62,444 bases of DNA from a virus (Duplodnaviria > Heunggongvirae > Uroviricota > Caudoviricetes), in IMG/VR virus record IMGVR_UViG_3300009702_000014, positions 1-62,444 of that record; one strand, 5' to 3'. The notes under the pieces are model-generated. The model did not search any database, was not told the DNA's origin, and was given only the letters and a program-made list of their open reading frames with translations. The translations under genes and the position numbers were made by a program. This document shows, in pieces, positions 1,899-62,074 of this stretch. The stretch's first letter is position 1. Every line of letters begins with the position of its first letter.

Positions 1899-3350
1899 TT
1901 ATCCGACAACAACGACTCGATATTGGTTTGTGGTTGGTGCCGTGGCAAAGACAATAGTAGCACTGCTCACTGTGGTTGCTTCAACGTCTGGAATAACCTG
2001 TGAGTAAGGAGAAGCTGCCTGTCTAACCATCACCACGATATCTTGCGTGTTTAAGTTATGGTTGACTACAAAAGAGGTAGTAGTACCGTCTCCGATGCTG
2101 GCACTGAATTTTCCTGTAGCCCCGAGATTGACACGGGCACCACTGGCTGTTGTAGCTCCGGTACCACCGTATGCAACTCCGATGGTAGTAGCGTTCCATA
2201 CACCACCTGTAATTGTACCAAGGGTAGTGATAGAGGTTTGTCCAGAATAGCTAGCAGAGATTTGAACAGTACTTGCATTGACCGTAATACCAGGGCCCGC
2301 CCCCACAGCAAAAGTGGTTCCAGACAGAGTTAAACCTGCACCGGCTGTGTATGTTCCAGCGCCAGAAAATTGAGCAAAGGTTAACGCTGTGGTTCCAACG
2401 GTAATAGGGTCAGGAGTTGTCAAAATCCAACTTGTTGTGGCATTTGCTGTACCATTTTCAACGAAAGTGAACATACCTGAGACGATATCAGCGTTTGTTG
2501 CAGCGTCAGGAGCACGAGTCATAGCGGAAGCTGAGCCGTTGAAGATATAAATACCGTTTTCAGAAGCAGTTGTCTGGTTCTTCAAAAGTACTCTGTCTCC
2601 AGTTGCAAGAGTATATCCATCAATAGCTGTTCCTGGCCCGGAAATTGTGACATTGGCAGTTGATGCAGCTTCTACAGCTTCTTTTACCACTAGCCCCTGA
2701 GCAACGGAATCAACATAATTCTTTGTAGCTGCGTCTTGGGCATTCGTTGGGTCTGCAACATTAATAATTTTGTTGGCATTCATGCTAACATTAGCAAGAG
2801 GGGCAGCAAATGTGTCTAGGGTATAGCTGGTAACTACCGTTTGCAAGTCAGAAATGGTGCTAGCAACCTGTGTACCAGTCATATTGGCACGGCTTAGGTA
2901 GTAGCTCGGGGCTTGTCCATTTAAGTTAGAAGCGTTTGTAGCGCTAGAAGCATTACCGGCCAGGGCAGCAGTAATCGTGCCTGCGGAAAAATTACCGCTT
3001 GTATCTCGGAAAACAAGAGTACTTGCCGTATTGACATTGGTAGCCGCATCCAGTTTAGCCTTGTCGGCTGCACTCATGGAACCGGCTGCGCTACCAGTAG
3101 CCGCTGTAATTCCAATTGTGGCAACGCCGCCGCTGATAGTAGCAGTAATAGGTGCCGTCGGAGTAACGCTTGAGAGCCACGCATCAGAGATAGTGACCCA
3201 TGCAACTCCATTCCAAACCTGAGCCGCATTGCTGGTAGTGTTATAGTATATCCTACCTACGCCTGGGCTTGAAGGAGCTGAAGCCAGGTTTTGTAGAGCA
3301 ACGTTTTGAATTTCGTTGGTCGTTAAATCAATTGCTGTAAGAAACTTCAT
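1899..3350 (-). CDS. Virion structural/fibre protein (483 aa)
   Basis: Ala/Thr/Gly-rich; QDAATKNYVD, GDRVLLKNQT..ENGIY and YGGTGAT motifs seen in phage fibre proteins. Confidence 0.75.
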   Translation of the reverse strand: MKFLTAIDLTTNEIQNVALQNLASAPSSPGVGRIYYNTTSNAAQVWNGVAWVTISDAWLSSVTPTAPITATISGGVATIGITAATGSAAGSMSAADKAKLDAATNVNTASTLVFRDTSGNFSAGTITAALAGNASSATNASNLNGQAPSYYLSRANMTGTQVASTISDLQTVVTSYTLDTFAAPLANVSMNANKIINVADPTNAQDAATKNYVDSVAQGLVVKEAVEAASTANVTISGPGTAIDGYTLATGDRVLLKNQTTASENGIYIFNGSASAMTRAPDAATNADIVSGMFTFVENGTANATTSWILTTPDPITVGTTALTFAQFSGAGTYTAGAGLTLSGTTFAVGAGPGITVNASTVQISASYSGQTSITTLGTITGGVWNATTIGVAYGGTGATTASGARVNLGATGKFSASIGDGTTTSFVVNHNLNTQDIVVMVRQAASPYSQVIPDVEATTVSSATIVFATAPTTNQYRVVVVG

Positions 3351-3358: not shown

Positions 3359-3895
3359 CTAGTTAAAATAGGCAGCCCCGCTGAATGGGGCGCTGAAATT
3401 TAGCCGAACATTGTTGTCGTCAATGTATAAATACTCTCCATAAACTACGGTTCCTGCTGAATCTACCACTTCAATCGCGGGCCGTTTACCTAAATTATGG
3501 GCAACGGACCAAGATGCGGAAGGAGAAGGCTGTGTGTAAACAAACCTAGCATCTCCTCCCGCAGGAACAATAGTGGCGTCAATAAGACTATGCACAAATT
3601 CTGTAGTAGCAATCCTTGTAGAGCGGTCACTGTTTACTGTTGTCGTAGCACTAGGAGTTCCTGTTAGCTGAGCATTATTAAAAACAGCATTAGCCAGGGT
3701 AGTTTCTAAGTCCAGCAATGTTTGTGTAACCGGCGTATCATACGCGAGGGTGCCTTTTAAATCTTTTAACACAGAGCGAAGAAAGTTCAAATCCTCTTCT
3801 AAGTCATGAAGACTAGCATACCCCAGCAAATCCAGGGTATCATCAATGTTGCTACTTTTCGCTATCTGGTATTGTTTGAGGATTGTTTGGGACAT
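3359..3895 (-). CDS. Virion protein with tail-fibre repeat (178 aa)
   Basis: LTGTPSA..TRIATTEFV fibre repeat; C-terminal W.V.HNLGKRP.IEVVD module. Confidence 0.65.
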   Translation of the reverse strand: MSQTILKQYQIAKSSNIDDTLDLLGYASLHDLEEDLNFLRSVLKDLKGTLAYDTPVTQTLLDLETTLANAVFNNAQLTGTPSATTTVNSDRSTRIATTEFVHSLIDATIVPAGGDARFVYTQPSPSASWSVAHNLGKRPAIEVVDSAGTVVYGEYLYIDDNNVRLNFSAPFSGAAYFN

Positions 3896-5333: not shown

Positions 5334-7100
5334 TTATTCAAGCATTTGCTTTATTTGCTCTACCGGCAATTTCATTATTTGGGCTTCGGTTAACCCCTGT
5401 TCGTTTGCTGAGGAGACAAGCTTCTCCTTGTCCTCGCGTGTAAGAGCAGCTAAGAAATTAAGCGTGGAATAAATGTCGCTGGTTTCGGGGTCGAGAAAGA
5501 TGCTTTTCAAATAGTCGATACCTTCCTCATAAGTATCAAAAGCCCCATCAATCTGAGCATTGAATAGAGTATTGATAAGCTGTCCGAAGTGAGGACCCCC
5601 TCGACTATATTCCGAAGGAATTTCTCCAGCCTTGGCAAGTTGAATTAAATCCTTACCGCCGATAAGGGGTGCAGGCTTATCCTCTTGTACTCGTAATTGA
5701 TGGGCCATTGCGACCATCTGCTGAGCGGCTTTCGGCATTCCTTTAGGAAGCGGCGGACGACCAGAATGGTCAGCTTCGATTACAAGACTAAGCATATCAA
5801 TATTAGCAGGAACAAGCCTTAATGCAAGGCGTCGAATGCTACGTGGATTTATGTCGTTTAGGTGTGCCATGTGTTCCTTTACCAATGGCAAAATACGCTC
5901 GATAATGTCTCTCGGAGCACCTATCGACTCTAGAAACTCCTCCGTCGGGACAACCCCTTCAACAGGATGGGCGGGAGCACGCCAGCGCCCCTCAATTACG
6001 GCGGTCATTGCTGGCTTTCCAAAATCGTGACAAAGGGAGGCTAGTAGCAGAACAGCCCTGTCCTTACCCTCCAAACCCTCACGATTTGCAATTTCAACAG
6101 CCGCATCCGTCACATGCAAGGTGTGATGCCACACATCTCCTTCGGGATGCCATTGGGGGTCTTGAGGAATTCCGATTAAATTGTTTAGCTGAGGAAATAA
6201 TTCGACCCATCCTGTTTCCCTCAGCACTGTTAGTCCTGCACTTGGCTTCGTGGATTTTGTAGCCCATTTGTAAAATTCCCCCCAAATACGTTCTACGGCA
6301 AGCGTTCTAAATTCTCTACGCAACTCGCTTGCTAATTGAGCAGTAGCAGGGTCAATCTTTAGATTAAATCTCCCTGCAAATTGAAAGCCTCTCAAAACCC
6401 GCAAAGGGTCTTCTGCGAATCTTTCAGAAGTATGCCGGAGGGTACCTTCCTTTAGATTCTTTACCCCTTCGTAAAAATCAAGCAATTCCCCCTGGGGAGT
6501 CATAGCCAGCGCATTAAAGGTAAAGTCTCTACGAGACGCCGCTTCCTTTGGAGTCATAGTGTGGTCGGGCTCAACAATAAATCCTCTGTGACCTTCACCT
6601 TGTTTGCTTTCTCGCCGGGGTAGAGTAAAATCATAGTCCTGGTTTGGAGTCGTCAGCTTTATAACACCAAAGCTGGCTCCAACAGTATCCACCTTTCCGA
6701 AATTCGAAAGAACCTGAGTTAGTGTAGAGGCATCAAGACCATAGATTTCTACGTCAATGTCCTTGCTGGAAGCCCCGTAGACTTTATCTCGGACAACTCC
6801 TCCCACGAAGAGAGGCTTTCCTCCAGCCTTCTGAATAGCATTTATAATACCATATAATTCCTGGTCTATCTGGATAGGGTCATATTGCGTCTGTAGATTA
6901 TCTTCTAGCTTGCGCAATTCCCATGAGTCAACCACACCATTCAAAACATCTTGAAAAGTGTAGGAACCCCCCGAATAGTCTCCCGGCTGTTTCACCGTTT
7001 GTCCTTTCGGGCCATTTATAACGAGTTCATAGCCTTTAGGGACTATGAACCCTTTAAACACAAAGCTATTCAATCTTTGAGCCATCGTAATTACGTCCAA
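5334..7100 (-). CDS. cca: Class II CCA tRNA nucleotidyltransferase with HD domain and ~80-aa N-terminal extension
   Basis: VGGVVRD, DIDVE, RRDFTFNAL, EDPLRVLR, HHTLHV...LCHDFGKP motifs all intact. Confidence 0.92.
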   Translation of the reverse strand: MDVITMAQRLNSFVFKGFIVPKGYELVINGPKGQTVKQPGDYSGGSYTFQDVLNGVVDSWELRKLEDNLQTQYDPIQIDQELYGIINAIQKAGGKPLFVGGVVRDKVYGASSKDIDVEIYGLDASTLTQVLSNFGKVDTVGASFGVIKLTTPNQDYDFTLPRRESKQGEGHRGFIVEPDHTMTPKEAASRRDFTFNALAMTPQGELLDFYEGVKNLKEGTLRHTSERFAEDPLRVLRGFQFAGRFNLKIDPATAQLASELRREFRTLAVERIWGEFYKWATKSTKPSAGLTVLRETGWVELFPQLNNLIGIPQDPQWHPEGDVWHHTLHVTDAAVEIANREGLEGKDRAVLLLASLCHDFGKPAMTAVIEGRWRAPAHPVEGVVPTEEFLESIGAPRDIIERILPLVKEHMAHLNDINPRSIRRLALRLVPANIDMLSLVIEADHSGRPPLPKGMPKAAQQMVAMAHQLRVQEDKPAPLIGGKDLIQLAKAGEIPSEYSRGGPHFGQLINTLFNAQIDGAFDTYEEGIDYLKSIFLDPETSDIYSTLNFLAALTREDKEKLVSSANEQGLTEAQIMKLPVEQIKQMLE

Positions 7101-7171: not shown

Positions 7172-7981
7172 CTATCCGTTAGCTTCTGCATTGTCTCCAT
7201 GAGCAGGTTGTCTAGACTTCTTACGGTCATGGGTTTCTTCATCTTTGCCCGCCTTATTTGTAAGTTTGCCTTCTAAATCCTGGCGTTCTAGAGCCTGGGC
7301 AAAACCGCCAGCAGCGGCAATAGCTTTAGCAATGTCAACCTTTAGATATACTCTGCCTTTTTTCATAACAATATTCGGATTTCCTTCAAGCAGATAGGTT
7401 GGTATTCCAGTAATATCCAGAGGGCTAACCATCTTCTCTATATCCATTGGAATACTTTTGATGGTGTCTTCATTATACTCTTTCCCTAGAATATAAGCTA
7501 CTGCTTTGGGCGCGAATGCTTCATATGCCTCTATAACTGGCGTATGGTCTAAGTACTGATATGTGTCGTCGTTGTCGATACCGCCTAAAAATGCGGAGGC
7601 CAAGAATTGAAACAGGAATAAGGATGCGGCAAAGGAGTCGGAGCGGAATAGAGCTATAAATGCCCAGTCGGCTTTCTTTTCTAAATCTGGAACATCAATC
7701 TTGACAGCATCGTAGGTATCAAATCCCCAGCTTGGATAATCCCCGTTATTAGCTATAATATTATCATATCTTTGCAGGGCACTCATAAAATCGAATGAAT
7801 AATCATATTGGAGTTGCTCTAGCTCCTCGATAAAGGGTGCGAAGTCATAATCGGCCTCCCCAAAGGCCCTCTTAACCTCCTCAAAAATGCGGAGCCCAAT
7901 AAAATCATCTTGTATATCGAGCCTCATTGCCTCAGCGGCTTGACGTTTGATATAGTCCACGGCCCGTAGGTTAATATTCAT
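7172..7981 (-). CDS. Hypothetical head-module protein (269 aa)
   Basis: Long acidic ORF co-oriented downstream of portal; 1-nt overlap with the upstream ORF. Confidence 0.65.
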   Translation of the reverse strand: MNINLRAVDYIKRQAAEAMRLDIQDDFIGLRIFEEVKRAFGEADYDFAPFIEELEQLQYDYSFDFMSALQRYDNIIANNGDYPSWGFDTYDAVKIDVPDLEKKADWAFIALFRSDSFAASLFLFQFLASAFLGGIDNDDTYQYLDHTPVIEAYEAFAPKAVAYILGKEYNEDTIKSIPMDIEKMVSPLDITGIPTYLLEGNPNIVMKKGRVYLKVDIAKAIAAAGGFAQALERQDLEGKLTNKAGKDEETHDRKKSRQPAHGDNAEANG

Positions 7982-10900
7982 TAGGCTCGACTCCCTTCTG
8001 TACGAAAGCCCCCGCTAAAGATATTGGCAAGCACCGGGTTAGTGCGCTGATTCACCGTCGATGTGTCTATTTGCCCCGTTTGTGTGTGGTTAATATTTCT
8101 CATCTCCCTCATAGTGACTTTGGGCAATGCCCCTCCACGTCTAGCCTGAGCATACTTCATAGTTTCTCCTAGCTGACGGAAAAATGTAGATAGCCCCGCT
8201 TGGTGTGCATAGGCCAATCCTTCTTCCATCTTAGCCTCATAGGGCGTTACCTCAATAGTACCATAATCCGATGAGATTTTTGTGTGGGAGTAATCAACCG
8301 CATCCCCTGTTTGTCCCTCGGGGCTGCCAAAAAGATGGATGCTCCCATCCTTATCTTGCCAGGTAAAGCCCTCCATCCCATAAAGACCATTTATATCTTT
8401 GCCTTTTTCCGGGTCAAAAGGCAATCCTTCCTTAGGTGAGATACGACGGAAGGTTCCCTCTGCTGGGGAAGAAGTCTCTAGATGTGACATAAGTGGTCCA
8501 AGCTGTGTTAGAAATTCAAACCTTTGGCCGAATTGTGCTCCCTGCTTTCTTGGTATGCAGAAAGACTCTGCCTTACTCTTTAATTCATTACTATAGTGGT
8601 CTAAAAGTGTCTGTTTTACATCCTCAGCCATTTGGGAGGTTGTTAATGAGTTTTCAAAGGAAGAGTGAAACTCTTGCACGAGGGCATCAATTTGAGGTTG
8701 TGCTTCTTTTTGGGTTTGATTCGTAATATCCACCAATCGTGCAATCATGTTATTGGGCCCGCTGCCAAGGATTTTATCTGCATGACCGCGAATTGTATCC
8801 AAGTTGTTAGGCTCACTAGAGATATAGGGAGACGAGGAGATATCAGCTTCGTTTACTTCGTCTTTCGTAAACATCATCGTATCCCCACGACTATCCGCAG
8901 GAATATGACCAAGGGTACGAACAAGCGAGTTACGAAGCTGCTGACTATAACTCATTTGTCCCCCATTCAGAGTATGAGTCAGTAGCACGTCTGATATGAC
9001 TTCTTTATCCTGTAGTTTGGAAATATCCTCACCATGATAACCCGCTGCATCTAATAGCGCTCTGGCTTGGTGGTCTTCCCACTTAATATCTCCATTGGCC
9101 ACCTGATAGGGAACGCCCCGGAACATAGCAGGAAGCATCATGCTTAGCACTCTTTCTCGGTAGCGACCGCTCTCCAAGGTGCCAATGGAAGCATTAGGGA
9201 TTGTCTCTTGTAGGAAATGGCTACTAAAATCACTAAAGATTGCATAATTAGCATCCTCTGGAGAGGATGGTGCGCTTAACATGTGGTGGGAAAGTGTTGA
9301 AACAGTATATGTCGTGAATGCGAGATTAGCTGTAGAAGATAGGGTATAGGCGTGTTTTTCAATCACCTTATTTTCTACAATAGCGTTTCGTATAGAGCGG
9401 GCACCCTCTTCTAGATTATGTTCATTATAGCTGAGAATCAATCCCTCGGAAAGGGCACTATTGACAGCATCATGTACGCTAGTGCTTACATTATGTGAGA
9501 GATGTCCACGGTTGCTAGCAGTATTTTTCAAAGTTAGACTCTCGGTAATAGAAGCAGCTATGTGGTCGTATACATCTTCCTTTTTTACGCCAGGAGCAAG
9601 ACGCATTTCTAACGTATTCATCATACCGGCGAATTTTTCATTGCCCTCGCGTGGGCCAAGGAAGTGGCGAATGTCAGATAACATACCAGTATTACGCTTT
9701 GGCAACATCCCTTTATCTCTACCCACTAAGTCTCTGTAAATGGCTTGTAAGCGTGCTACTCCCCCTTGCCGAGGGATTAAAATATAATTTCCAAACAATT
9801 CCCCTAGCTGGTTTGGTTGTAAGTTCATCGAAGCAGCGGTCGGTGTAGCACCTAACTCTTTTTGCTCTGTACCACCCTCATCCACTGCAAAAGTGAAATG
9901 TCTATCCAAGAAAGCGCGGATTCTGGCCTTGTCCTTCACGAGTTGGAACAGACCTTCGACGAAATACTGTCCTCGACGGTCGCGTGTGGCCGTAGGAACA
10001 GCTTCCTGAACCTTTCCAAAATTCGATGTAATATCTTCCTCCGTGCTAGAGGAGTCTTTTTCGCCGGTCAGAATCGCGTCCATTTGGCTCTTATGGTTTT
10101 TAACAAGCTCACGAAAGTCTTTAAGAGCCATAGTTGCAGCTTGTTCCTCTGCCTGCCCTGTACTCTTCTTCATATATTGCTTGAGGTATGTAGCGGTGGC
10201 AAGAGACAAATCGAAAGAGTCATTGAATTCCTTATTTTCTAAAGTGCGACCCATAGCGAAAGTCAATCCCTCGGTGAAGACCTGGCGCTGATTTTCTGGT
10301 ACGTCAGAAAGAAAAGGAAAGAGTGAGTTGAAGGGGATAGGCTGTGTAGTCTTTACTCCACCAGAGATAACTTTTTTCAGCCTCGCTAAGTTACCCTCGG
10401 GGATGCCTAACCCAACAAGTGCAGCGTAAAGGGAGCGTCCATCAACGGTGTGGGGCCCTTCTTTCTTCTTCGTAAAGTTGACTTTGAAGTCCATGTCCCC
10501 CTTCCAGTCATTATATGAAACAAAGACAGTGGAAGAGTCGGGGTTGGAATCAAGGGTCTGAGAAATACGAGAGATTTCTACTTGGCTAAGAGTCTGAGTC
10601 ACTTTTTCTACGGACTCTTCTCTCGCACGGCTATTTAAAGCTGTGAGTATCTGTTCGATTTGAGTACCAAATTGTTCCTTTTGCTCAGGAGGCAAAAACT
10701 GTTGCGCATCTTCTCCGTAGCCTTGAATAACCTGAGCATCCCTCTCGTAGTCAGTATTCTCTACAGCGTGGTCAAATTCAGCTTGTACAGAATCCATAAG
10801 GGCCTGTGCTGCTTGCCCGTCTACTTGCTGAGTCTCATCAGGCATTTCAGCCTCTTGTGTCTCCTCGATGCGCCACCCTTTTTGCTGGCCTTCCTCAGAG

Positions 10901-11178
10901 ACATACTGCTCAAAGGATTGCCAATCAGGATGATTGGCCCCCGGAATAATCTGACCACCCACATACACGTGCCCTGCGGGGCTTGTTACACGAAATCCAG
11001 GCTCTACTCGAACACTTTTAATCGTGTAAAGCAGGAGTGTAGCATCGTCAGAGAGACCCAATTTACGTAGATATTGTTCCGCGTCAAATGGGTCCATTGC
11101 ACCCGAAGCATACCCTTGTGGTACTGTGATACCTTTAAAAACAGTGAGTTTATAGTTAGAGTCCAAGAATCTCACCAA
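7981..11178 (-). CDS. Large hypothetical protein, candidate internal virion protein (1065 aa)
   Basis: Long ORF directly after portal; N-terminal FKGITVPQGY motif shared with the CCA enzyme; start codon uncertain. Confidence 0.7.
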   Translation of the reverse strand: MVRFLDSNYKLTVFKGITVPQGYASGAMDPFDAEQYLRKLGLSDDATLLLYTIKSVRVEPGFRVTSPAGHVYVGGQIIPGANHPDWQSFEQYVSEEGQQKGWRIEETQEAEMPDETQQVDGQAAQALMDSVQAEFDHAVENTDYERDAQVIQGYGEDAQQFLPPEQKEQFGTQIEQILTALNSRAREESVEKVTQTLSQVEISRISQTLDSNPDSSTVFVSYNDWKGDMDFKVNFTKKKEGPHTVDGRSLYAALVGLGIPEGNLARLKKVISGGVKTTQPIPFNSLFPFLSDVPENQRQVFTEGLTFAMGRTLENKEFNDSFDLSLATATYLKQYMKKSTGQAEEQAATMALKDFRELVKNHKSQMDAILTGEKDSSSTEEDITSNFGKVQEAVPTATRDRRGQYFVEGLFQLVKDKARIRAFLDRHFTFAVDEGGTEQKELGATPTAASMNLQPNQLGELFGNYILIPRQGGVARLQAIYRDLVGRDKGMLPKRNTGMLSDIRHFLGPREGNEKFAGMMNTLEMRLAPGVKKEDVYDHIAASITESLTLKNTASNRGHLSHNVSTSVHDAVNSALSEGLILSYNEHNLEEGARSIRNAIVENKVIEKHAYTLSSTANLAFTTYTVSTLSHHMLSAPSSPEDANYAIFSDFSSHFLQETIPNASIGTLESGRYRERVLSMMLPAMFRGVPYQVANGDIKWEDHQARALLDAAGYHGEDISKLQDKEVISDVLLTHTLNGGQMSYSQQLRNSLVRTLGHIPADSRGDTMMFTKDEVNEADISSSPYISSEPNNLDTIRGHADKILGSGPNNMIARLVDITNQTQKEAQPQIDALVQEFHSSFENSLTTSQMAEDVKQTLLDHYSNELKSKAESFCIPRKQGAQFGQRFEFLTQLGPLMSHLETSSPAEGTFRRISPKEGLPFDPEKGKDINGLYGMEGFTWQDKDGSIHLFGSPEGQTGDAVDYSHTKISSDYGTIEVTPYEAKMEEGLAYAHQAGLSTFFRQLGETMKYAQARRGGALPKVTMREMRNINHTQTGQIDTSTVNQRTNPVLANIFSGGFRTEGSRA

Positions 11179-13440
11179 CTTGCTCTATTTGTGCATCTGT
11201 TAATTCTGTTGGCTTGAATTTATAAAAGTCCTCATAAAGAGCTTCACGCAGAGTCGGGTCTAGGCTCTTGTAAATAGCACGTTCTACACTTTCTAGTACG
11301 TGCTCCTCGCCGCCAACGGCAGCGATGCTCTGCTTTGTGCCCTCGTCCATGTTGTCAATAGCGGCTTTGGACATATTACGAATGAGCGGAGCGTCTCCAT
11401 CCTCACTCACAGTAACGATACCATTACCATCATAGCGTGAGAATTTAAACGGGTCTCTATCCTCTTCCTCGGAGACTACAGACTTTTGTATCATAATCCC
11501 TAATGAGGGATGTGAATTAATAAAGTAGTCATAGGATTCTTCTGGACTACGTAGCCATTCTCCGCCGGGGTAATTATGGATATCATGTAATTCTAGGAAG
11601 TCACCAAAATTAGATGAAGCATCATACATCTCTGTAAAACCTTTAATCATCAATTCTTCGGCTTCTTCTTCGGTTGCTGCGTGCATGGAGAAGAATTGGC
11701 TAGACTTTAGATTGGTCGGAGAACCAATAGGGCTCGCTCCACCAGGAGGTTGTGGAGGGCCACCAGCCCCAGGGTTCTCTCCTCCCACTGCACCATTAGG
11801 ATTAGCGGCCAGCCCACCACCCCCAATCTGAGGTAGTGGTGGTAGTCCACCAGGGAGTCCACCTTCATTTTTATCTTCGGGTTCCCAATTCCTGAGTCCT
11901 TGTAGTGGCGTATTTCCCCAAGGAACCGGGTGCTGCCCTTGTGACGCACGATATTGGTTGACGCTGAGCGCACCGCTAACAAGTTTCTGCTGAGCGATAG
12001 TCCATTCAGCCTTCTTTTTATCCAAGTCGTCGTCCTCAAACCACAGCATCAAATCTCGCTCTGGACGTAGCTCATTTATAATATGCTGAGTTACGTATTC
12101 AGAAATAGTACGCATCAGTGTTTCAAGTCCCTTGCTCTTGGTCATTTCGGCCTGAGTTTGAGACGTGGAACGATTAACGTCAGAAATAATACCTACATCT
12201 TGTGGTGAGACTTGGAATACAGCACAAATCTTACGAGTTAGATATTCAGCTAATTCCTTATACTGCATGTCACGACGACGGCCTTTGAAATCAATATAAG
12301 AAACTTTACCACCGGAAATAATAGGAACTTGAGTATAGTCCCCCATCATAATAGATTGCAGGTGACGCTGGAATGTTTCCAACGTCTCTTGGTTAATCTG
12401 AGACTGAGCAGAATCCTTACCACCGCTCATAGGCTCAACAGAAATAAAACCCTCTGGAATGGAACCACCCTTGCGATAGAAGTCTAGCTGCCCCTTGTCA
12501 ATAAAGATGTCAGCCAGGGAATCTGTGTAAAGGGTTTCCATGTTGGACAAACCATAACCGAAATACTTCATATCGGTCATAGGATTCATCTTCATGATAA
12601 CCATGTCCCGCCTTTTAAAATAAACCTGGGGAGAGCCGTGGACTACCTGTACATACGCTTTCTCATTGTCATATGTGCCATATTCATTAATCAATGGGCG
12701 AACTGTTGAGCCATCCATCGGCATAAGGCCCCGAATTCTTTCATTCTCATCCCGGACGAGTACGAATGTGCCCCTGTCGAGAATCAGCAAGTCCATGAGG
12801 ATGCTTTTTAGGAATTGTCCCCAAGAGCGGGTGTCTGTAAACCACGGGTCCGGGTCGTCAAGAATTTCTTTAATTTCTTTAATATCATTGGCCCGTTTTC
12901 TATAGAAGGCATCATGCTTCTCCTGTAAGTGCTCAACCGTAGCCAATTAGCAGGTGTAAAGTCCTCTTTCTTTTCTTCAAAAAGTTCCTTTTTGTCTGCG
13001 ATGTATGATTTAGGGTCCAACTTTTCATAAATTTTTCGCAGAAAGGCAACTTCCGCAGCATCGAATGCCGGGTGGTCGTCCAAATCATATACACTATACT
13101 CTAAAATACTAATCTGACGCGGTGGCTCTTTATCATCCCTCGGCATAATCTTATATGGTAATTTAGCTACTTGGTGGGCTCTAAGGGTAAGAATAGCCCG
13201 AACGACAGTACTGTTATAGGCAAGAACCCTCTGAGTATTAAAGTTGATACGTCCTGGGTAGGGTTTACCACTAATATCATTCCTATAATACTCTGACGAA
13301 ATGTATACACCTTCATTACCAGTGATGTTGCTACCTTTTTGTCCAGTCCCGGCTATCTGAATGCGGCCCGCTGGAGTAGCTCGTTTGGCAAGTCGTGTAT
13401 TCACGATTAGTTTCTTACCCTTGATTTCTATTTCTGCCAT
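11156..13440 (-). CDS. Portal protein, split into two ORFs by a frameshift near 12947-12950
   Basis: N-part VVRAILTLRAHQVAKLPYKI; C-part SILMDLLILDRGTF, MPMDGSTVRP, YGLSNMETL, KICAVFQVSPQDVG, SVNQYR are phage portal motifs; restoring one base gives FTPA(E)LATVEH. Confidence 0.85.
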
Positions 13441-13566
13441 GTAAGATTTCTCCTATAACTACAGCCATTATAACATGCATAATGGGCATACGACAAGGCA
13501 AAATCATGAAAAAATAAAAAAGCGCCCATTGAGGACGCTATACCAATTTTTTTGATTGTAAATTGC

Positions 13567-16428
13567 TTAAACGGGGCTAGAATGCAACTTTTGAATATTC
13601 TGCACTGCTTCGACTATATCGTGGTTTTCTTGGTGCCACTCCTCGGGCTGAGTTTTGATATAATTTTCCAAGAATACGAAGCAAGCATTAAAATCTTGGA
13701 CATTGATACCATGTTTGAGCATGATAGCACCTACGCGAGGCTCCAAAATCTTAGAATTAACTTCAAGCTTTCTTTCCTTAAAGTCGTATTCGTGGCTGTA
13801 TACAGAATAAGGCAAACCTGTAACCTTGCAATACCTCTTTTCTTTGTGCCCAACGTCGATATCTACAGGGGCAACCATTCCGGGGAAAATCTTCTCAGCC
13901 GCCGCTTCCATAATCTCCTTGATTCGAGCAATCGTCTCGTCCGCGTGGTCCTTGTAAATCTCAAAGATTACAGAATCGTGAACTGTAAGAACAATGTAGC
14001 CGTAGCCTGTTTCTTTTAGGTAAGCGAGAAGGTCCACCATAGCTTGCTTTGTGACATTCGCAGACATGGACTGAATCTTGTGGTTTTGTGCCTGTCTAGC
14101 TGCGCCGCCCTGTAAACGCCGGTGCTCTTCTTCTCCTACCTCTTCTTCGGAAGGAATCTCGTACCAACGGATACGTCCAAATGGGTCTTGTGTGTAGCCG
14201 CGTGTAAGCGCCTCGGCCACAGAGCGTTTTAGGAATTTATTTACATCAGGGTATTGCCCCAGGAACCCATCAATCATATCTTGTCCCTGGTCAGCATTTT
14301 CTGCAAAACCTCTGTTCACAAGGCCAACTGCGGAAATGCCATATGGAATCAGCTTATCCAATATTGCTATTGGGCTAGACTATACCTTTATTGAATAGTT
14401 TTATTCAATACCTGCCGTATTATGCTTTCGCATCCAGCTTCACCCATATCTTTTGACGTAGGGCAGCGTGAGTCGTTGAACCATTTGGAAGCCTTTCGGC
14501 TAACTCTGGCTGCTGATTGCCCATGTAGGGTTTCCAGCAATTGAGCAGGTTTTATTTCGGCTATTCTATTAACCGAAAGATACTCCTTTTGACATTCGCC
14601 TCAGTTCTTCACCACTGAGGCTTTTCCCATCTACACTGAACACCCCTTTTCTGAAGGCATCCTCTGGAAGCTTGAAAATATTCTTGGCATTTTCCCAGTG
14701 TACATCTTGTGAGTTAACTGCCTTGATGAAATTCTTATCCCCCGAGGCATACGCTAGAATACGAGATTCCACGGAAGAATAGTCAGCAAAGACAAGAATT
14801 TTGTCATCCTCGGTGGTGAGGAAACTCTTTAACATGTCAGGAGGGATATTTTGTAGGTTAGGTTTGCGGGAAGAGTTGTGTACACATATTTTATTTGCAA
14901 TGAAATTGTGAGTCTCTTCTACCTCTATGTCATAGACATCGACAACTTCGCCTGGGTACTCAACAGAAGTAATTCTGTGGTTATATGGAGTTTCATCATA
15001 GAACCATTCCTGAATATCTCTGACTACTCGGCCAGCATTTATATCTCCAGATAAAGCTAATACCCTGTCATTAGGCTTAAGGTCTTTAGCTTCTTTGTAC
15101 GTACCGTCTACTAAGCGTATCTTATGGTCTGCTGTCACTTTTAGTGAGCCGGTGTGCTTATTACCTTGACCAGTCCAGTTTACCTCGACTACTTCTTTGT
15201 GGCCTGTTTTTCCTGCCCAAGTGACGGGTTTAACAACAAGATTCAAAGAATCGTCGTATGAGTAAACTAAATCACCCGGTCTAATATCCTCAATTGGAAC
15301 ACCTTTAGGGGATACATCTCTAATAGACTCCACAAGGGAGCCTTTAGCTACACAAAACCGTCCGGTTGCTGTTTCAGCTTGAATTAGCAAGGAGTGAATT
15401 CTTCCATCGGGCCAAATCAAATCAATGTACCCTTTACCATAAGTAGAAGAAATCTTAGAGGCTTCTTTATAGTCCAGAAGTTTAGGCACAAGAGGGTGGT
15501 CGATGGTACGCAACACCTGTTCATCTGCCTTCTCTAGCCCAAAAAAGTCAGCAATCTGCTTTGGAGAGCTAACTTTAAATGCCTTGGGAACAAAGGTATT
15601 AAACAGGGAAATGACTCCTTCTCTTTGAGCTAATTCCTTACCAAAGCTCTGATTTAATACCCCTTCTAACAAAGCGGCCTTGTTACCATATTCCCCAGCC
15701 GCGTCACTCCAAGCGCTCTTGTTAATTTTTACTCCTCGATACTTCATTTCGGCGGCCGCAAAGATAACATCCATTTCTAGCTCAATAACCTTCTCTAGCC
15801 CGAATCGTTTCACAAACTTCCATTGATTACGGGCAATCTCAATCATGTAGCGAACATCGTCTCTGGCGTACCTAATCTGCTCCTCAGAGAGCGGTCGGTG
15901 GGCCCAATCCGAAGTCCCCTGGTCTTTCTGGATAATTGCTTTATTCGCATAGCGGTATACTGTGGCTTGCAATGAGTGAGAGAACTTGCGATTATGTTTT
16001 GTGTTGAATTCTAAGTTGTCGTCCTTTTCTTCCAAAAGCGGCTCCCATTGCCCTAGGTGCTCCATGCTCTTGGCAGAGACTTTACCAGAAATGCGAGTTG
16101 CTTCATCTGGCTGCCTCTTACCAGCATTAAGAACCTGAGAGGCAACCATCGTACACCAAACTTTCTTAAATTGTAGGTCCGTCTTGATGTTGAACCAATC
16201 CAATTCGAATACCGCTTGATGAATTAGAAAGCGATAGTCTTCATCAATCAGGCGTTGTAGCAAATCATGGGTTTCTTCGTTCCAGTCATGTAATTCAATA
16301 GTTCCATCTTCGTAGGCCAATTGCACGAGTGCAATCTGTGCCTCGGGGTTGCGAGGCTCAAGTGTGCCTCGACCATAGCCATCTGTCGTTTCAATATCTA
16401 ATGCTACAAGCTTTTCATTATCAATCAT
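13567..16428 (-). CDS. polA: Family A DNA polymerase with 3'-5' exonuclease; join(16428..14572,14349..13567), contains an intein
   Basis: LDIETT exonuclease, TGRF/SSRKPNLQNIP, ADYSSVESRI (motif A), spliced KGVSFGIPYG (motif B), TVHDSVIFE (motif C). Confidence 0.95.
14350..14571 (-). mobile_element. Group I intron (222 nt, no homing endonuclease) in polA motif B
   Basis: P1 UUUCGGU/GCCGAAA with U.G at the 5' splice site; P AAUUGCUGGAAA, Q AAUCAGCAG, R GUUCAACGACU, S AAGGUAUAGUCU; terminal G; splicing restores SFG|IPYG in frame. Confidence 0.93.
14875..15354 (-). mobile_element. Mini-intein (160 aa, Hint only) in polA
   Basis: Starts CVAKGSLV, block B VTADHKI, ends VYDIEVEETHNFIANKICVHN followed by Ser; too short for an endonuclease domain. 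Confidence 0.93.
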
Positions 16429-50716: not shown

Positions 50717-50791
50717 TGGTTGCCCGAGTAGGATTCGAACCCACAGCTAAGAGATTCAAAGTCTCTTGTGTTGCCATTACACCATCGGGCA
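50717..50791 (-). tRNA. trnQ: tRNA-Gln(TTG)
   Basis: TGCCCGA acceptor, AGAGA-CTTTGAA-TCTCT, TTCGAAT, CCA encoded. Confidence 0.92.
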
Positions 50792-50794
50792 ATA

Positions 50795-50869
50795 TGGAGA
50801 GTGGTGTCGGATTCGAACCAACGTTCAACGGGTTGCAGCCGTTTACCTAAGCCTCTCGGTCAACCACTC
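50795..50869 (-). tRNA. trnC: tRNA-Cys(GCA)
   Basis: AACGG-CTGCAAC-CCGTT, U73, CCA. Confidence 0.92.
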
Positions 50870-51065
50870 ATTTTTTCCAAAAGTACGTGCAGTCATGATG
50901 TCCGTAAATCTTCTTCGTTATCACACAGTTTGCTGAATTCAAATCCGGGCCAGTTTGAGAATACACAAAGATGGACCCACTACCGTCCCCGTACACAACC
51001 GCAAGGGACTCCCCTCCTCTGCTTTGAAAGCTCTCCACGAATTCAAGGAATTCTTTATCAAACAT
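50868..51065 (-). CDS. Hypothetical protein (65 aa) within the tRNA cluster
   Basis: ORF with SD; GHHDC motif. Confidence 0.5.
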   Translation of the reverse strand: MFDKEFLEFVESFQSRGGESLAVVYGDGSGSIFVYSQTGPDLNSANCVITKKIYGHHDCTYFWKK

Positions 51066-51145
51066 GCTCTACCCCAACTCAGTCGCTCGAATAATCTCTT
51101 CCTCCTTCTGTCTAGATACTAACCTATGAAAGAATGAGAAAGATG

Positions 51146-51231
51146 TGGTGCCTCCCGTGGGATTCGAACCCACAAGCCCTCACGGGCAACAGATTTTAAG
51201 TCTGTCGTGTAGACCATTCCACCAGAGAGGC
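51146..51231 (-). tRNA. trnL: tRNA-Leu(TAA)
   Basis: ACAGA-CTTAAAA-TCTGT, long variable arm, CCA. Confidence 0.92.
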
Positions 51232-51237
51232 ATAAAA

Positions 51238-51314
51238 TGGTGCGGGAGGAGGGATTCGAACCCACACTGTCACGGTCCTAAGCCGTGCGCCTCCTGCCGT
51301 TGGGCTACTCCCGC
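51238..51314 (-). tRNA. trnL: tRNA-Leu(TAG), short variable arm
   Basis: CACGG-CTTAGGA-CCGTG, A73, CCA. Confidence 0.85.
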
Positions 51315-51318
51315 ATGA

Positions 51319-51399
51319 CGACTACCCAAGGGCTGTCCAAACCCTTGACACCTTATAGGTGGTCCGTCCCTGGCAGAGGCCAGGGGGAATCGGTAGCCG
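51319..51399 (-). ncRNA. Putative four-way-junction structured RNA upstream of tRNA-Leu
   Basis: CGGCTACC/GGTAGTCG closing helix enclosing three hairpins. Confidence 0.45.
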
Positions 51400-51507
51400 G
51401 GACAAAATAAGGTTTTTATAGAGGTTCGCCCTTCCTCTAGTGGGGCTAATAAAGTGTGCCCCTTTGGTAATACGCCCCTATCATAAGGCGGGGCTAAATG
51501 AGAAGTG

Positions 51508-52650
51508 TTAGTGAGCGAACAAGGGAAGTGCCAGGAATAGAGACAGAACGAGTGCTACCAGCCAAACCGGAAAAATCACTTCACTCCCTAAGGCACCAAG
51601 GACAACTCTCAGAACCCAAGGGACTGCGTACCACTTAGCAGCTACAGCCGCACCCCATCCGATTGCGACAATGACACCTACCATTGTGCTAAACAGCCAA
51701 CCGACCAACACCGTTACAACCAACCACAAAAGCACAGTGATAAAAACCTTGCCCATCTAATTCTCCTTTCGAAACTCAGTCTTAACGCCTAAGAGTATAG
51801 CATGTGTAGCTAAGTCTGTCAACTACCAAGCAGCTTATTTACAATCTGGTGGGCAAGTTCCACCTGGGGGCTAAACAAACCAATCCACGTCCAGGCATTC
51901 AGTAGATATATAAACCCCGTAATAAATGCCCCCGCTACAATAGCATAAGCCACCTCTATGAGTAGGGTTATTTCCGGGTGCCGTCTAAAATGTGGAATAA
52001 CTAACAAACCCGCAACTCCAACTGCTAGTGACACTACTCCACCAATTACCTGATTCAGCGCCGTGATGCGTACTGTAGCGAGGGCTAAAGAAAGAGTCTC
52101 CGGGCCATATTGATGGCCTATTTGGTTTATCTGATTAAGAACCTGATTAACTAAGTCTGCATTAGTCATTATGAATAATCACCTTTTCCACAGGAGTATC
52201 CACAGTCAGGTGCACGCTACGGATAAAATCAGCCCCGTACAAATCAAGATGTACCTGATACTCCATCGGCTGTTCAGCCATTACCTTAACGAAGGTATCA
52301 ATACCTTCCACAGCCCGCGTACCAGCAGGTCCATTCCTATTAGTCTTACGTACTGGGGTGCCATTCCTGACATAATTCTCAGCGTCTTGCAGTACCTCGG
52401 GCACCCTAGCAAGCCAATCATCACTGCGTGACTTTGTGCTATCCCAGGCTACTTGACAGATGGTCTTTCCATAGATACGACGCACATTTTCCGGGGCCCC
52501 GAAACTTTCTCCGGCTAGCTTGGAAAAAGCATAAGCCACAGCGTCAACTCCCCTCTGCAATTCATCATCCCCGATATAGCCAGAGAATTCCAATTGCAGC
52601 CGGTAAACATCCGTCGTTGCTTCTTCAAGGGGTACATAGCGTTTGCTCAT
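51508..52650 (-). CDS. Three genes: membrane proteins 51508-51756 and 51819-52169; hypothetical 52162-52650
   Basis: TM segments; SD-led starts. Confidence 0.6.
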
Positions 52651-53550
52651 GTAGACATCCTACCCTTTCCAAAGGTGAGAAGCATGAGTTTTTGTGAATC
52701 GAAAGTTAAATTGAAATAAACTTACGAATCTAAAGTCAACTTGATGTTTTCCTAAGGGGGTTGACTTACGAATCGAAAGTACCCTTCGCGCCGGGCTAAG
52801 AAAATTCCTCATGCCATCCTAAAGGAATCCACCCTGGATAATTCTCTACAGCAAAGATGTCGTCTTGATTAACTACCACACTAATCTCTCTACCACAGTA
52901 CTATGTAGATTAAGTTTTCATGTCTATATCATAGCCCGCCGTAATATTAGAAATGTTATGAGTCCCACTATGACTAATTAGGACCTTCCCACTTATTCTA
53001 CCTCAGCAGGTTATGAGATGTATGAGTATGCATATGAGAAGAATTAGGAAAAGGTTGTATTGCTAAGGAGGGAAAATGATAAAATCTTCATATTAGAGCT
53101 TTAAATGCAAAAGAGGTTTTTAGATAGATTGTGTATAAGTATGTATGGTTATGTAATAATATTCATTAAACCGAAGGTGAGGGAGATTTCCTGGGGGAAA
53201 CTTGCGTGGGAAGAGGCGGTTCTACGAGAGAATCACACTAGAAAATTATAATTAACAACATACAAGTCACCTTGAGTATGTACGCTGTTGTCAGGGTTAA
53301 ATTGCTGCTTGACAAAGTAAGAGAAAAAGTTATAATGCAAATATTACCAACTAGCATAAAAATCAATACCAGGAAATCCCTCTACATTAACAGGTTGTGT
53401 ATCCAAAGAGCACAAGACTTGCTAAACCTATTTCCATCATAGGAGGTAAGATTACGTTTATCCACGCACCACACCTATCTGAGTAACCTATCTCAATGTA
53501 TAACTCCTAACATGTTTTTATTTATAGCCCCGCTTTTAACGTATTATATA

Positions 53551-55378
53551 TTAACTCGATTCCTCTACCAGAGTCCTAGAAATATTTATTCCCTGACGGT
53601 ATAGCTTACCCTCGATACTATTAATAGCGTCAATAATCCTATCCTGTGCTTCGTCACGTGCATCTGCCATGTTGGAGGCATCTAGGTAAAACTCCAACGA
53701 AGTGCAAAAGTCAATTTCTACTCGGTACTCAGGCATCAGCCACCACCAATCATATTCGCAATACCAAGAAAACCAAACAGGGCAATAAGAACCCACAGCC
53801 AAAACCTGTTATCCTTTTTGTTTTCTACTATTAGCCCGGTTAAACCAGTGATGAAGATTATAATCCATATCATCAGATAATCACTCCTGTAACGCACACA
53901 AGGGCCGTTGCCGCAGAACCTACCATTAGCCACCAGTGGCCCTCCTGGTAGCTCTCCCAGGCAATGTAACCCCAAATAACGGCCATAAGTCCCAAAGCCA
54001 CACGCATAATTGTCATTTCCATAATTCTTTTCCTTTCTTGTTTTTAGCCCCGGATTAACTAGGAAGTGCCTTATAGACTCGGACCAGCACGTGCATTCCG
54101 TGGGCGATATGAATGCCATACGTTACAAGGGCGATAATCAAAAAAGCCGTTAGAGCCCTCAGAAAGCCCTTAGCTGTCATAACGCGAGGGAGATTAGTGA
54201 AAAACAGGTGTCCTGCCCCTGTCAGCACAACCACCATTAAAATCAGAAACGTATCAAATCCCATAAGATGCTCCTTAAGAAAGGTAGGCTGCCTATAACC
54301 ACAGTCTACCTTGTCCTTCTATGAGTTGTATGAGATTATTTTAGCAAAATTCCTATAATCCCCGCCACAATCTCGATAGTTACACCTGAGAAAGCAAGCC
54401 AACGTAACACCTTATCAGGAGTGTTTAAAGCGAGGACAAAAAGCCCTGCTCCCAATAAAAAATCCAACATAATGAGTACAATCATTTTTCACTTCCCCTA
54501 ACAGTCACCACAGCCACAATGAGAGTCCAGAGCACGAGAAACAAGAAATTATATGGCCAACCGAATTGCGTGTAAAAAACCGAGGTAACAATTGCAATCC
54601 ACAGGAGCCTAAATATCACGAATTTTATTCTCCTTTTCGTAGTCCATATATCTAACTTTGGCGTTAGTCATGCGCTTTAGGAATTTTTCAGCCGTTTCAA
54701 TTGTAATTTCCGCATCTTTACGCCATTGAGTGCTTTTTTGTGTAGACGGAAAATCTAAAACAGTCCGTAACTCATTCCTTAAAGCATTGATTATGGTTAT
54801 TGCTGCTTGGTCTTTATCAATCATGGGCCTGTACTACTCCTTTAGGAGTTTTAGTGTAGCACAATTCTTGGACAATTACACCTTTTTGATTGCTTTCTTT
54901 ATTTTAGCATATAAATTTAAAGATTTTAGGAATGCAGCCTCTTCTTCTGAGGTCATTTGGCCCGCCAAAGTTGAATAGATAATATTCATCACATGCTCAT
55001 GTTCTTTTATTTGTTCCGGGTCAATATCAATAGTTACTTTCATGAGTGCCAGCTTTCCACAAGTTGCAAACCCACTTGGCCTCTTTCTATGTTCAAAAAG
55101 CTTGAGATTAGAGAGTATACAATCAATTCCTTTCTACCTGCATCATCAGTATTACACATACTATGATGAGGAGGATGAGAAAGGAAGATTTTAACTGGAT
55201 GGCGACTCTCACGACGTTTGGAAATTTTCACTATTTAAGCGGCTTATCCTTGATATAGAGAAAGACCACGTATAGAACTGCCACAAATATTCCTATCTGT
55301 CCATATCCGGCAACAACAAAGCCTACCATCAGCAGAAACGTTACAATTGCAAGTATTTCTTCAAGTTGGGTCATGGTA
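53551..55378 (-). CDS. Cluster of small genes, many encoding 1-2 TM membrane proteins (e.g. 53551-53736, 53736-53873, 53873-54022, 54055-54264, 54609-54824, 55040-55231)
   Basis: Short coupled ORFs with hydrophobic stretches. Confidence 0.45.
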
Positions 55379-55856
55379 TGTATCCTGGGAATAATTGAAA
55401 TCCACGCGCAGAGGACACGCGAAAAACAGGGTAATTTTGTTGAGTTGTTGGGGGCATCCATGCGTTTGTCCACGGCAGCCTGTCGGCATTCTTATTGTTT
55501 TGCCATTCATAAGGTTCAAAAGCATTTCCGTTACTAACCACATAAGCTATCCAAAACCAAGGCCCTAGATAAAGGCTTTGCCGATAATGGTGTAATTCAT
55601 GCGCCTGCACTTCAAGCGAATTTGTAGGCACGGACGAAAGTCCACGAATATCGTTGGTGGCATAAACTTCCGGGTCATACAATGTAATTAATGGAAAAGT
55701 GGTTGCAGAAGCTCCCCACAGGCGATGTGTAGGAAAGGGCATCCAAATCTGAGGACTAGCATCGAATTGCCACGAGCCCAAAGACCAAGACGCAGTGCCA
55801 CCAAGAGGGCTTGAAAAATGTAAAGTTAATGTAAGGGTAATCGCAAGCAAGCTCAT
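55371..55856 (-). CDS. Secreted/membrane protein with HExxH motif (161 aa)
   Basis: N-terminal signal; QAHELHHYRQ, NAFE. Confidence 0.55.
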   Translation of the reverse strand: MSLLAITLTLTLHFSSPLGGTASWSLGSWQFDASPQIWMPFPTHRLWGASATTFPLITLYDPEVYATNDIRGLSSVPTNSLEVQAHELHHYRQSLYLGPWFWIAYVVSNGNAFEPYEWQNNKNADRLPWTNAWMPPTTQQNYPVFRVSSARGFQLFPGYIP

Positions 55857-55890
55857 ATCCCTACTATGACAGGGAGATAGATTAGAAATA

Positions 55891-56904
55891 TTAGTTGAAT
55901 TCCTCGCCTGTCTCTTTATACTTTTTGTTTAGGATTTTTACCATCAGCCGCGTACCATCCGAAGCAAGCCTGTCCGGGGAGGGGCGTATAACGATTCCCT
56001 CGTTAATGTGTAATCCCTGACCACTGACCCGTTCCGTACCATCGGCAAGCCGTTTTAGGTTGACGTCTTTTAATGGCCCGGTATAGTAAAGCGGCGCCCA
56101 ATACTCAAAAATTGCATCAGGGATATCTCCGAGGCTAAGACTCTCACCATTTACACGCACATCAAAAAACAACACAGTAAGCTTTTGCTGACCATACTTA
56201 AATCCCTTTTGCAGAGGAATTACTTCACCAAAGAGTTGCACATCGTCCTCTGGCAAAAATTCATCGAACATGTCAAAGGCCCCCACATTGCGGCCAGCAG
56301 TCCAGTAAGCATTTGACGCAGACTCTTCTAGTACCATATCCCGACTCAGCAGCCCTTTCGACGTAACAAATATCTCACCCGCAGCCGTGCGGCCATAAAT
56401 AACCTGGCTACCGTGAATTTTCTCACTGATATTGACGCGCTCGTCCTCCGAGAATTCATGGCGGTAAATACCAAATTGCTCTACGTCATGTTGTGTGAAT
56501 CGACCCTCCGGCAACTTTTTGACTTGGCCCAAAAGGGACTGTGGGATAGGAGGCTCATACTTATGGATATTAAGCCTCTCGCTCACGTCCTCACCATAAG
56601 GGACATCAGCCAATTCGGGGAAGAATTTATCCGAGGGAGAGACAGCCCCCATCGACAACTCTCCACGTAGGCGAATTTCTCGCACGCGGTCCTTATGCGG
56701 ACCACCAAGATATTCCTTCCACGGTGCTTGCAATTCCTCAGGCAACACAGACTTGGCCGGGATAAAAATTACATCTTCCCCGCCTTCGTAAATACCTTTC
56801 TGCACCACGACCTGAAACTGCCCTACCTTACCCAGCATCAGCTTGTCGGCATTCGGGTGGGGGAATAATTCAATTTTGTCTTTAAACACTTTCCACTGTG
56901 CCAT
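55891..56904 (-). CDS. RNA ligase, DRB0094/Rnl2-like family
   Basis: PHPNADKL N-domain; SEKIHGS (motif I), LFGEV, FFDV, NEGIVI, KILNKKY. Confidence 0.88.
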   Translation of the reverse strand: MAQWKVFKDKIELFPHPNADKLMLGKVGQFQVVVQKGIYEGGEDVIFIPAKSVLPEELQAPWKEYLGGPHKDRVREIRLRGELSMGAVSPSDKFFPELADVPYGEDVSERLNIHKYEPPIPQSLLGQVKKLPEGRFTQHDVEQFGIYRHEFSEDERVNISEKIHGSQVIYGRTAAGEIFVTSKGLLSRDMVLEESASNAYWTAGRNVGAFDMFDEFLPEDDVQLFGEVIPLQKGFKYGQQKLTVLFFDVRVNGESLSLGDIPDAIFEYWAPLYYTGPLKDVNLKRLADGTERVSGQGLHINEGIVIRPSPDRLASDGTRLMVKILNKKYKETGEEFN

Positions 56905-56926
56905 GATATTACTCTACTCTTTCTGA

Positions 56927-57193
56927 CTATGAGAATGCTGAAAACGCATTAACCTCTTCTTTGTCGTTCAACTCTCTCACATGCAGACCTATAAATGGGT
57001 TTTCGTCATGTCCTATTGCATAGGTATGATATCCACGTGGGTAGTGCTTTTTGAACGTCTTAATACTACGTCCGCGAGCCTTATTTTTACTCGGAGCCTC
57101 GACCATCACTACATCTATACAAAATTCGGGAGGTTCATAATAACTTTTTCCGGGCAATTTATATAAGGGTGTAGTTACTAACCATTTTCTCAT
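56927..57193 (-). CDS. Hypothetical protein (start probably MRKWLV)
   Basis: Coupled between RNase H and the ligase. Confidence 0.5.
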   Translation of the reverse strand: MRKWLVTTPLYKLPGKSYYEPPEFCIDVVMVEAPSKNKARGRSIKTFKKHYPRGYHTYAIGHDENPFIGLHVRELNDKEEVNAFSAFS

Positions 57194-57585: not shown

Positions 57586-57729
57586 CCCACCCTTTCAACC
57601 TATGATAGCAGTTTTCAATATTAGAATAATGAGTGCCTGGTGCGCTTTGGAGTCCCCTCTATTTTATTTCATAAGGTAAAGGCTCATAGGCATCTTCTTA
57701 CAAAAAGAAAAATCCCCTGAGCCTTTCAG

Positions 57730-58118: not shown

Positions 58119-58134
58119 TTTATCTCCCTTGTTT

Positions 58135-58209: not shown

Positions 58210-58211
58210 TA

Positions 58212-59232: not shown

Positions 59233-59236
59233 ATAG

Positions 59237-59315: not shown

Positions 59316-59346
59316 ATAAAATTGTAACCTAGAGAAACATGAGGAG

Positions 59347-62073: not shown

Positions 62074-62074
62074 A

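Follow-up and report, generated by a model that had tools for sequence, protein, structure and literature searches.

Among the proteins that phages inject together with their DNA are RNA polymerases, anti-restriction proteins and ADP-ribosyltransferases; we found no report in the literature of a packaged tRNA-repair or CCA enzyme. In T4, the proteins IPI, IPII, IPIII and Alt carry a capsid targeting sequence (CTS), a helical element of about 10 residues that is cut by the prohead protease gp21 at L/I-x-E. A second group of related systems is formed by the MuF proteins (SPP1 gp7, Mu gpF), portal-adjacent minor head proteins that occur fused to effector domains. Iyer et al. 2017 (cited in PMC7824862) are said to have described MuF-effector or 'polyvalent' fusion proteins, with zincin-type peptidases among their domains, that are thought to be delivered with the DNA. 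Here we describe a gene for a predicted CCA-adding/HD enzyme that bears an N-terminal leader of its own and lies in a block of genes headed by the portal gene. The window that was analysed is the first 62 kb (62,444 nucleotides) of a single 201,951-bp virus contig (IMGVR_UViG_3300009702_000014), for which CheckV gave a completeness of 97% and whose portal protein shows 49% identity with that of the Thermus phage phiYS40.

Like the T4 CTS, the leader is an N-terminal element found on otherwise unrelated proteins of one phage, here CCA/HD enzymes, HExxH proteins and the protein encoded next to the portal, which we call the post-portal protein. Among the T4 cargo are enzymes for the next host, and its expression accompanies that of the head genes; the putative leader-bearing cargo can be likened to it. 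Unlike the T4 CTS, the leader appears to be a folded, beta-rich domain of about 55 amino acids, without any sequence likeness to the CTS and without a recognisable cleavage site; the module is also found inside a 1000-aa protein, and packaging is here putative. The resemblance to MuF and SPP1 gp7 lies in the position of the post-portal gene, directly after the portal gene (its start overlaps the portal stop, and the order is the same in all relatives), and, as in MuF fusions, in an N-terminal module joined to interchangeable enzymatic domains, zincin-type peptidases included. However, the post-portal protein and the leader both lack a match to Phage_Mu_F or any other family and, unlike polyvalent proteins, the putative cargo is encoded by separate genes, each with its own copy of the small domain, instead of forming one chain.

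The enzyme itself has the organization of the Escherichia coli-type Cca (NF008137), with a class II nucleotidyltransferase head followed by an HD domain and all signature residues, but it differs in its N-terminal leader and linker (about 75 aa), its C-terminal helical tail (about 55 aa) and its location in a portal-led block. With the CCA enzymes of other phages (phrog_2244; Erwinia, Salmonella and Cronobacter phages, Friunavirus) it shares 29-37% identity over the catalytic core, but none of those enzymes has the leader. CCA genes of other phages sit among nucleotide-metabolism, replication or RNA-repair genes (PMC8092837; the setting in the related contig L001 was observed here).

The leader-bearing CCA/HD gene

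The gene occupies positions 5334..7085 of the minus strand and encodes 583 aa when read from the ATG at 7085. The listed open reading frame (ORF) extends to a TTG at 7100; the ATG is the likely start, and matches a 583-aa database entry. No other gene of the 202-kb genome belongs to the PolyA_pol (CCA-type) family. Pfam placed PolyA_pol (PF01743) at residues 98-222 of the ORF (1e-18, above the cut-off), the RNA-binding domain at residues 246-307 and HD (PF01966) at residues 323-415 (7.2e-8). On the minus strand of the window, these correspond to a Pol-beta nucleotidyltransferase head domain with the signature GGxVRD ... DxD (6435..6809, from Pfam and the alignment), a PolyA_pol RNA-binding neck and body domain (6180..6365) and an HD phosphohydrolase domain (5856..6134) whose H...HD...D residues are invariant among relatives. 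In an alignment of eight related sequences, the head signature (G95, G96, V98, R99 and D100, with D109 and D111), motif B or RRD (R185, R186 and D187), motif D or EDxxR (D226, L228 and R229) and the HD metal ligands (H321, H353, D354, H405 and D439) were all found to be invariant.

The protein matched phrog_2244 at 4e-66, and its top NCBIfam model was NF008137, the multifunctional CCA addition/repair protein (1.5e-56), on which it scored 191.9 bits against an equivalog cut-off of 451 and is thus a relative, not an equivalog. Beside this best model of the CCA addition/repair type, A-adding and poly(A) enzymes also matched it. The AlphaFold2 (AF2) model had a mean pLDDT of 80 and, in a Foldseek search of the PDB, matched the solved CCA-adding enzymes 6qxn (E 4.2e-13, TM-score on the target 0.74) and 1miv (E 6.9e-12), while phmmer retrieved 6ibp at 8.4e-20. 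Judged by its sequence and modelled fold, the gene encodes an intact class II CCA-adding/HD enzyme, with a predicted role in tRNA 3′-end repair. The position (5334-7100, minus strand) and the CCA-adding/HD identity that a first-pass annotation of this DNA had proposed hold in the light of the Pfam domains and signature residues.

The canonical fold is flanked by some 75 residues on its N-terminal side and by about 55 helical residues on its C-terminal side. This helical C-terminal tail (5337..5498, minus strand) was found only in leader-bearing CCA enzymes and is absent from the leaderless relative on contig L001. The phage also carries a large set of tRNA genes, of which 27 of the 29 predicted by ARAGORN encode their own 3′ CCA (G000 50,717-66,932; in the window 50,717-62,233), so that the enzyme would serve for repair and not for the maturation of phage tRNAs. 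The tRNA genes start at 50,717, which is 43.6 kb from the CCA gene and agrees with the distance of about 44 kb noted before.

Just upstream of the CCA start we observed a 13-nt stretch, TTGATTGGACGTA, in the source phage (window 7086-7105, minus strand) and in the sister contig L002 (13975-13997), which may be a translation control element. No Shine-Dalgarno match was found at the CCA start in either of them.

The leader as a module shared with the post-portal protein

The leader domain, delimited by profile, AF2 model and hhalign, is a small beta-rich module that spans residues 9-60 of the CCA protein (6906..7061, minus strand) and gives way at residues 62-65 to a low-confidence linker. It opens with the core motif VFKGFIVPKGY (residues 9-19; 7029..7061, minus strand; 25.7 bits on the motif matrix described below). 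A first copy of this motif, VFKGITVPQGY, was identified in the post-portal protein by the matrix and by a regular expression (11110..11142, minus strand). When the two proteins are read from ATG 7085 and TTG 11166, the motif stands in the same register, residues 9-19, in both. Since five of the eight identical residue pairs are encoded by differing synonymous codons, the likeness lies at the protein level and does not reflect a recent DNA repeat. A strict regular expression of the motif found only two sites in the genome, those in the CCA and post-portal proteins, and pairwise BLASTP of the CCA leader against the post-portal protein gave 8/11 identities (E 8e-4). When we compared the N-terminal 45 residues of 239 genes all against all, this pair ranked fourth of 28,441, after three pairs of true paralogues, but its score of 45 against 44 for chance pairs is borderline when taken alone.

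We therefore rely on a matrix of the 11-residue core made from 17 relatives of the post-portal protein, the source phage and its closest sister being excluded. In the six-frame translation of the genome, the family member scored 28.0 bits and the CCA site 25.7, while the next best of 185,007 positions reached 12.5; the calculated chance expectation for a site as good as that of the CCA gene is about 0.003 matches in that number of positions. The matrix behaved in the same way on the sister contig L002 (29.1, 24.0, 15.3 and 10.6 bits). Profile-profile comparison of 12 leaders with 19 N-domains of the post-portal family by hhalign gave a probability of 93.8% and an E-value of 1.8e-7 over 57 columns, and mapped leader residues 9-65 onto residues 48-108 of the post-portal protein (10843..11025, minus strand). 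The homology of the leader to a domain of the post-portal protein is thus confirmed at the level of sequence. The first-pass annotation had noticed the resemblance of the leader to the N-terminus of this protein, listed there as a 1065-aa ORF, and had staked its reading on a significant profile alignment; both peptides that it quoted are present, its second copy falls within the region aligned by hhalign, and the alignment is significant.

The module is not confined to these two proteins. A profile search of 5.8 billion proteins retrieved ten leader proteins, seven with CCA/HD bodies and three with HExxH bodies. The latter lack a Pfam match but resemble zincin-type peptidases in an invariant HExxH and a downstream Glu; searches of Pfam, NCBIfam and PDB sequences found no relative of them. 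At the equivalent genomic position in contig L010, a 621-aa protein aligns to the CCA protein by the leader alone (44% identity, E 9e-10), and in L015, L016 and L021 a leader-peptidase gene and a leader-CCA gene stand in tandem. Within the source genome, the carriers are the CCA enzyme and the post-portal protein only. The search of the genome and of related phages with a leader profile, as had been proposed for this locus, therefore places the module on CCA enzymes, HExxH proteins and post-portal proteins. The leader matched no Pfam family. In the AF2 model it is a small beta-rich unit, predicted with moderate confidence (pLDDT 63-75), in which the motif segment is of low confidence and after which a disordered linker follows. 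Among relatives, leaders are 34-57% identical, and their K-G-F positions are invariant within the folded domain; processing of the N-terminus after FK, which had been suggested from the sequence, is unsupported, as these residues are invariant parts of the domain and no conserved site was found. We regard the leader as a separable module of about 55 aa that constitutes an uncatalogued domain family. Because the same leader heads peptidase-like proteins, it is probably not an accessory of CCA chemistry, and its presence on a tRNA enzyme, a peptidase-like protein and a neighbour of the portal points to a common partner or destination.

The leader-bearing peptidase-like proteins are 504-638 aa long (L010 5485-7350; L015 10001-11740; L016 2262-3776; L021 3998-5911) and have, in addition to the invariant HExxH, a downstream E-x-x-S-M-G. 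By these motifs they would make up a new family of zincin-like peptidases, likely a second type of cargo. The next gene after them is always a conserved ORF of 73-86 aa (L015 11742-11981; L016 3763-4002; L010 7350-7568; L021 ~5874-6131), which could encode a peptidase inhibitor or a chaperone. A second module common to the CCA C-terminal tail and the segment that follows the leader in the peptidases was considered and rejected (hhalign probability 0.3%).

The nearest leaderless CCA relative, on contig L001, is 43% identical to the CCA protein and aligns from its residue 75. It has neither the leader nor the C-terminal tail, although it retains all catalytic motifs, and its gene adjoins an RtcB fusion and another nucleotidyltransferase, which is an RNA-repair setting. 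The absence of both extensions from an enzyme encoded beside RtcB suggests that the leader came with a move into the portal block.

The post-portal protein (7981..11166, minus strand) has 1061 aa when called from TTG 11166 and 1065 aa as the listed ORF, and its start overlaps the portal stop. It belongs to a family of about 1000-1190 aa, to which an exhaustive profile search added 22 members, all of 988-1192 aa. The N-terminal 100 residues or so are the most conserved part of this family, and a C-terminal beta region is also conserved. Neither the whole protein nor its N-domain matched Pfam or PHROG, Phage_Mu_F (PF04233) included, and there was no match by tblastn against GenBank phages or in a pattern search of IMG/VR. 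Foldseek found nothing below E 0.1 in the PDB, and VIA-align of residues 109-192 returned generic helical bundles only. The single match in BFVD, at E 4.2e-6, was a viral protein without a name whose 881 aa equal the length of phiYS40 gp002, although its identity with gp002 could not be confirmed. Sequence profiles compared with gp002 gave weak matches, namely a C-terminal motif at E 0.014 and a 14-residue leader-like stretch at a probability of 44%. From these searches, the protein of about 1000 aa is best described as a member of an uncatalogued family.

The portal-led block and the capsid-arm mimic

The block has a conserved order: polA, the portal gene, the post-portal gene, one to three small ORFs, the leader cargo, genes of about 205, 199, 69 and 178 aa, and fibre-like genes. 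This order is kept in contigs L002, L007, L008, L015, L016, L017 and L020, and in L021 from the post-portal protein onward, while the post-portal proteins of these contigs have diverged to 15-20% identity. All known leader-CCA and leader-peptidase copies sit in such a block. The CCA gene was first described as lying between portal-linked and structural genes; indeed it stands between the portal and the fibre-like genes. After the portal gene of phiYS40 come the gene for an 881-aa protein and next the tail fibre genes, and no CCA gene intervenes; by position, gp002 of phiYS40 and TMA_002 of phage TMA correspond to the post-portal protein. In the source phage, the genes for the major capsid protein and the maturation protease lie at 181.8-185.2 kb, on the same strand as the CCA gene.

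Between the two leader-bearing genes lies a gene for an acidic protein of 269 aa without any family match (7172..7981, minus strand). Near its end, this protein reproduces the N-terminal arm of the major capsid protein in a stretch of some 22 aa (...AAGGFAQALERQDLEG...). Sequence comparison places this mimic, which includes ERQDLEG, at residues 218-241 (7259..7330, minus strand). The arm that it copies lies at G000 ~183,150-183,220, within the capsid gene (181837-183282), and is conserved in the phiYS40 capsid protein too. Elsewhere the arm peptide is carried by a free-standing ORF of 38-56 aa with an acidic tail (L008 13681-13824; L015 9859-10020; L017 9728-9841; L021 3701-3868). The peptide may be a protease site or a decoy of the capsid arm. 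The presence of a capsid-arm copy in the gene between the leader proteins links the block with head assembly. A single candidate protease motif, ...LERQDLE-G, was identified in this phage group; it occurs in the N-terminus of the capsid protein and in the 269-aa protein, and no motif like it is present in the CCA protein.

The portal gene (11156..13440, minus strand) is split between two frames in the source assembly, in pieces of 210 and 596 aa, with the frame change at ~12,950-12,995; in relatives it is intact and encodes 733-790 aa. Either an error of sequencing or a genuine frameshift could account for the change. In the portals of this clade (L002 7609-9981 and relatives; window 11156-11700), a Gly/Pro-rich linker leads into an additional domain of about 180 aa at the C-terminus, which has no Pfam match and may provide a docking site in the head interior. 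Upstream of the portal gene we noted a sigma-70-like promoter match (13467..13496, minus strand; 10/12, with a TG-extended -10), preceded by a terminator-like hairpin (13521-13539), both called by consensus matching, which found no strong terminator before the CCA stop.

At the upstream end of the block, the family A DNA polymerase (window 13567-16428, minus strand) is encoded by two ORFs of 619 and 264 aa, where relatives have one ORF of 696-731 aa, and the 619-aa ORF holds an in-frame intein (Intein_splicing, residues 377-518). Downstream of the CCA gene, a 483-aa protein (window 1899-3350, minus strand) matches the 'head decoration' family phrog_2647 at 6.6e-82 and has tail-fibre-like C-terminal parts, and a 178-aa protein (window 3359-3895, minus strand) has the same C-terminal module. 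These two proteins may be head or neck fibres.

Possible roles of the leader

In view of the portal operon, the capsid-arm mimic and the precedents of T4 and MuF, the leader is best read as loading its bearers into the prohead, from where they would be delivered with the DNA. By analogy with these systems, we consider it an evenly balanced question whether the leader-bearing enzyme is packaged in the capsid and injected with the DNA. In the mechanism that we propose, the leader, a mobile module of the portal operon, would act as an address domain; a flexible linker of about 15 residues joins this beta-rich N-terminal unit of about 55 aa to the CCA/HD enzyme. Made along with the portal, the leader would bring its bearer to one docking site in the prohead as this assembles, for which the core near the portal and the post-portal protein are the two candidates. 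Enclosed with the DNA, the enzyme would then be released in the next host, where damaged CCA ends of tRNAs would be restored before any phage gene is expressed, the HD domain clearing blocking 3′ phosphates. We infer these steps of docking, packaging, ejection and timing of action. More broadly, and tentatively, the leader might be a cargo domain of phiYS40-like phages of about 200 kb that loads a CCA/HD enzyme and a zincin-type peptidase via the portal region, so that injected tRNA repair disarms tRNA-damaging host responses ahead of phage expression.

Several observations weigh against packaging or against the homology on which it builds. As the only CCA-type gene in a genome that is 97% complete, the enzyme must also serve any cytoplasmic need, and its presence can be explained without packaging. 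When all six-frame ORFs were searched with a hidden Markov model (HMM) of the whole post-portal N-domain (about 125 aa), the CCA ORFs were the top matches outside the family, but at E 1.5-2 they were not significant; the significance of the leader comes solely from the short-motif matrix and the profile-profile comparison. There is no conserved protease site between the leader and the CCA enzyme. The leader is absent from 50,697 GenBank phage records, and no cultured phage with a leader was found. The post-portal protein (the 1065-aa ORF) is no more than a putative virion protein and has no informative family or fold match. The promoter and terminator calls are consensus matches, and promoter matches occur at chance frequency. 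The GenBank records of phiYS40 and TMA carry no virion-proteomics note.

The alternative that survives best, though we think it unlikely, is that the leader is an interaction or oligomerisation domain that unites its three kinds of bearer (CCA enzyme, peptidase and post-portal protein) in a late cytoplasmic complex, with nothing packaged and tRNAs repaired in the infected cell. If the phage has any need of CCA-enzyme activity, its sole CCA gene has to work in the cytoplasm, a common domain reveals a common partner and not where that partner is, and the genome does hold its large tRNA set elsewhere. However, every known copy lies in a portal-led block and not in an RNA-repair region, whereas it is the leaderless relative that adjoins RtcB; no joint cytoplasmic task is apparent for a peptidase, a tRNA enzyme and a 1000-aa protein; and the adjoining gene carries the capsid-arm mimic.

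It is improbable that the leader anchors its bearers outside the particle, on the neck, portal rim or capsid surface, in the manner of a decoration protein. The downstream genes are fibre- or decoration-like (phrog_2647 and tail fibre families) and a peptidase at the surface could attack envelope proteins of the host, but a tRNA CCA-adding enzyme would be without substrate outside the cell, and the same leader on a CCA enzyme and a peptidase in one phage calls for one destination useful to both. More improbable still is an accessory substrate-binding or regulatory domain of one CCA enzyme lineage. Its position N-terminal to the catalytic head, its conservation among relatives and its small folded unit in the AF2 model would suit such a role, but the domain also heads non-CCA proteins and lies inside the post-portal protein, and the 43%-identical leaderless enzyme keeps all catalytic motifs. 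Last, an explanation of the resemblance by chance, or by a common nucleotide element around start codons, would fit the shortness of the similarity, a within-genome pair score one point above the chance tail and the non-significant whole-domain HMM, but is already refuted by sequence comparison, given the scores of a matrix made from independent relatives (25.7 against 12.5 bits), the hhalign E-value, the equal register from the start codon with differing synonymous codons, and the maintenance of the leader in more than 12 phage lineages.

Even without packaging, these results define two uncatalogued families, the leader domain and the post-portal protein of about 1000 aa, together with a conserved portal operon. 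If the leader is indeed a loading domain, it would give a new and easily recognised marker by which to find virion cargo among the large thermophile-type phages of this clade, and its compactness would suit it as a tag with which foreign proteins could be loaded into capsids. Delivery of a CCA/HD enzyme with the phage DNA would also suggest that tRNA 3′-end damage is an early host response worth pre-empting.

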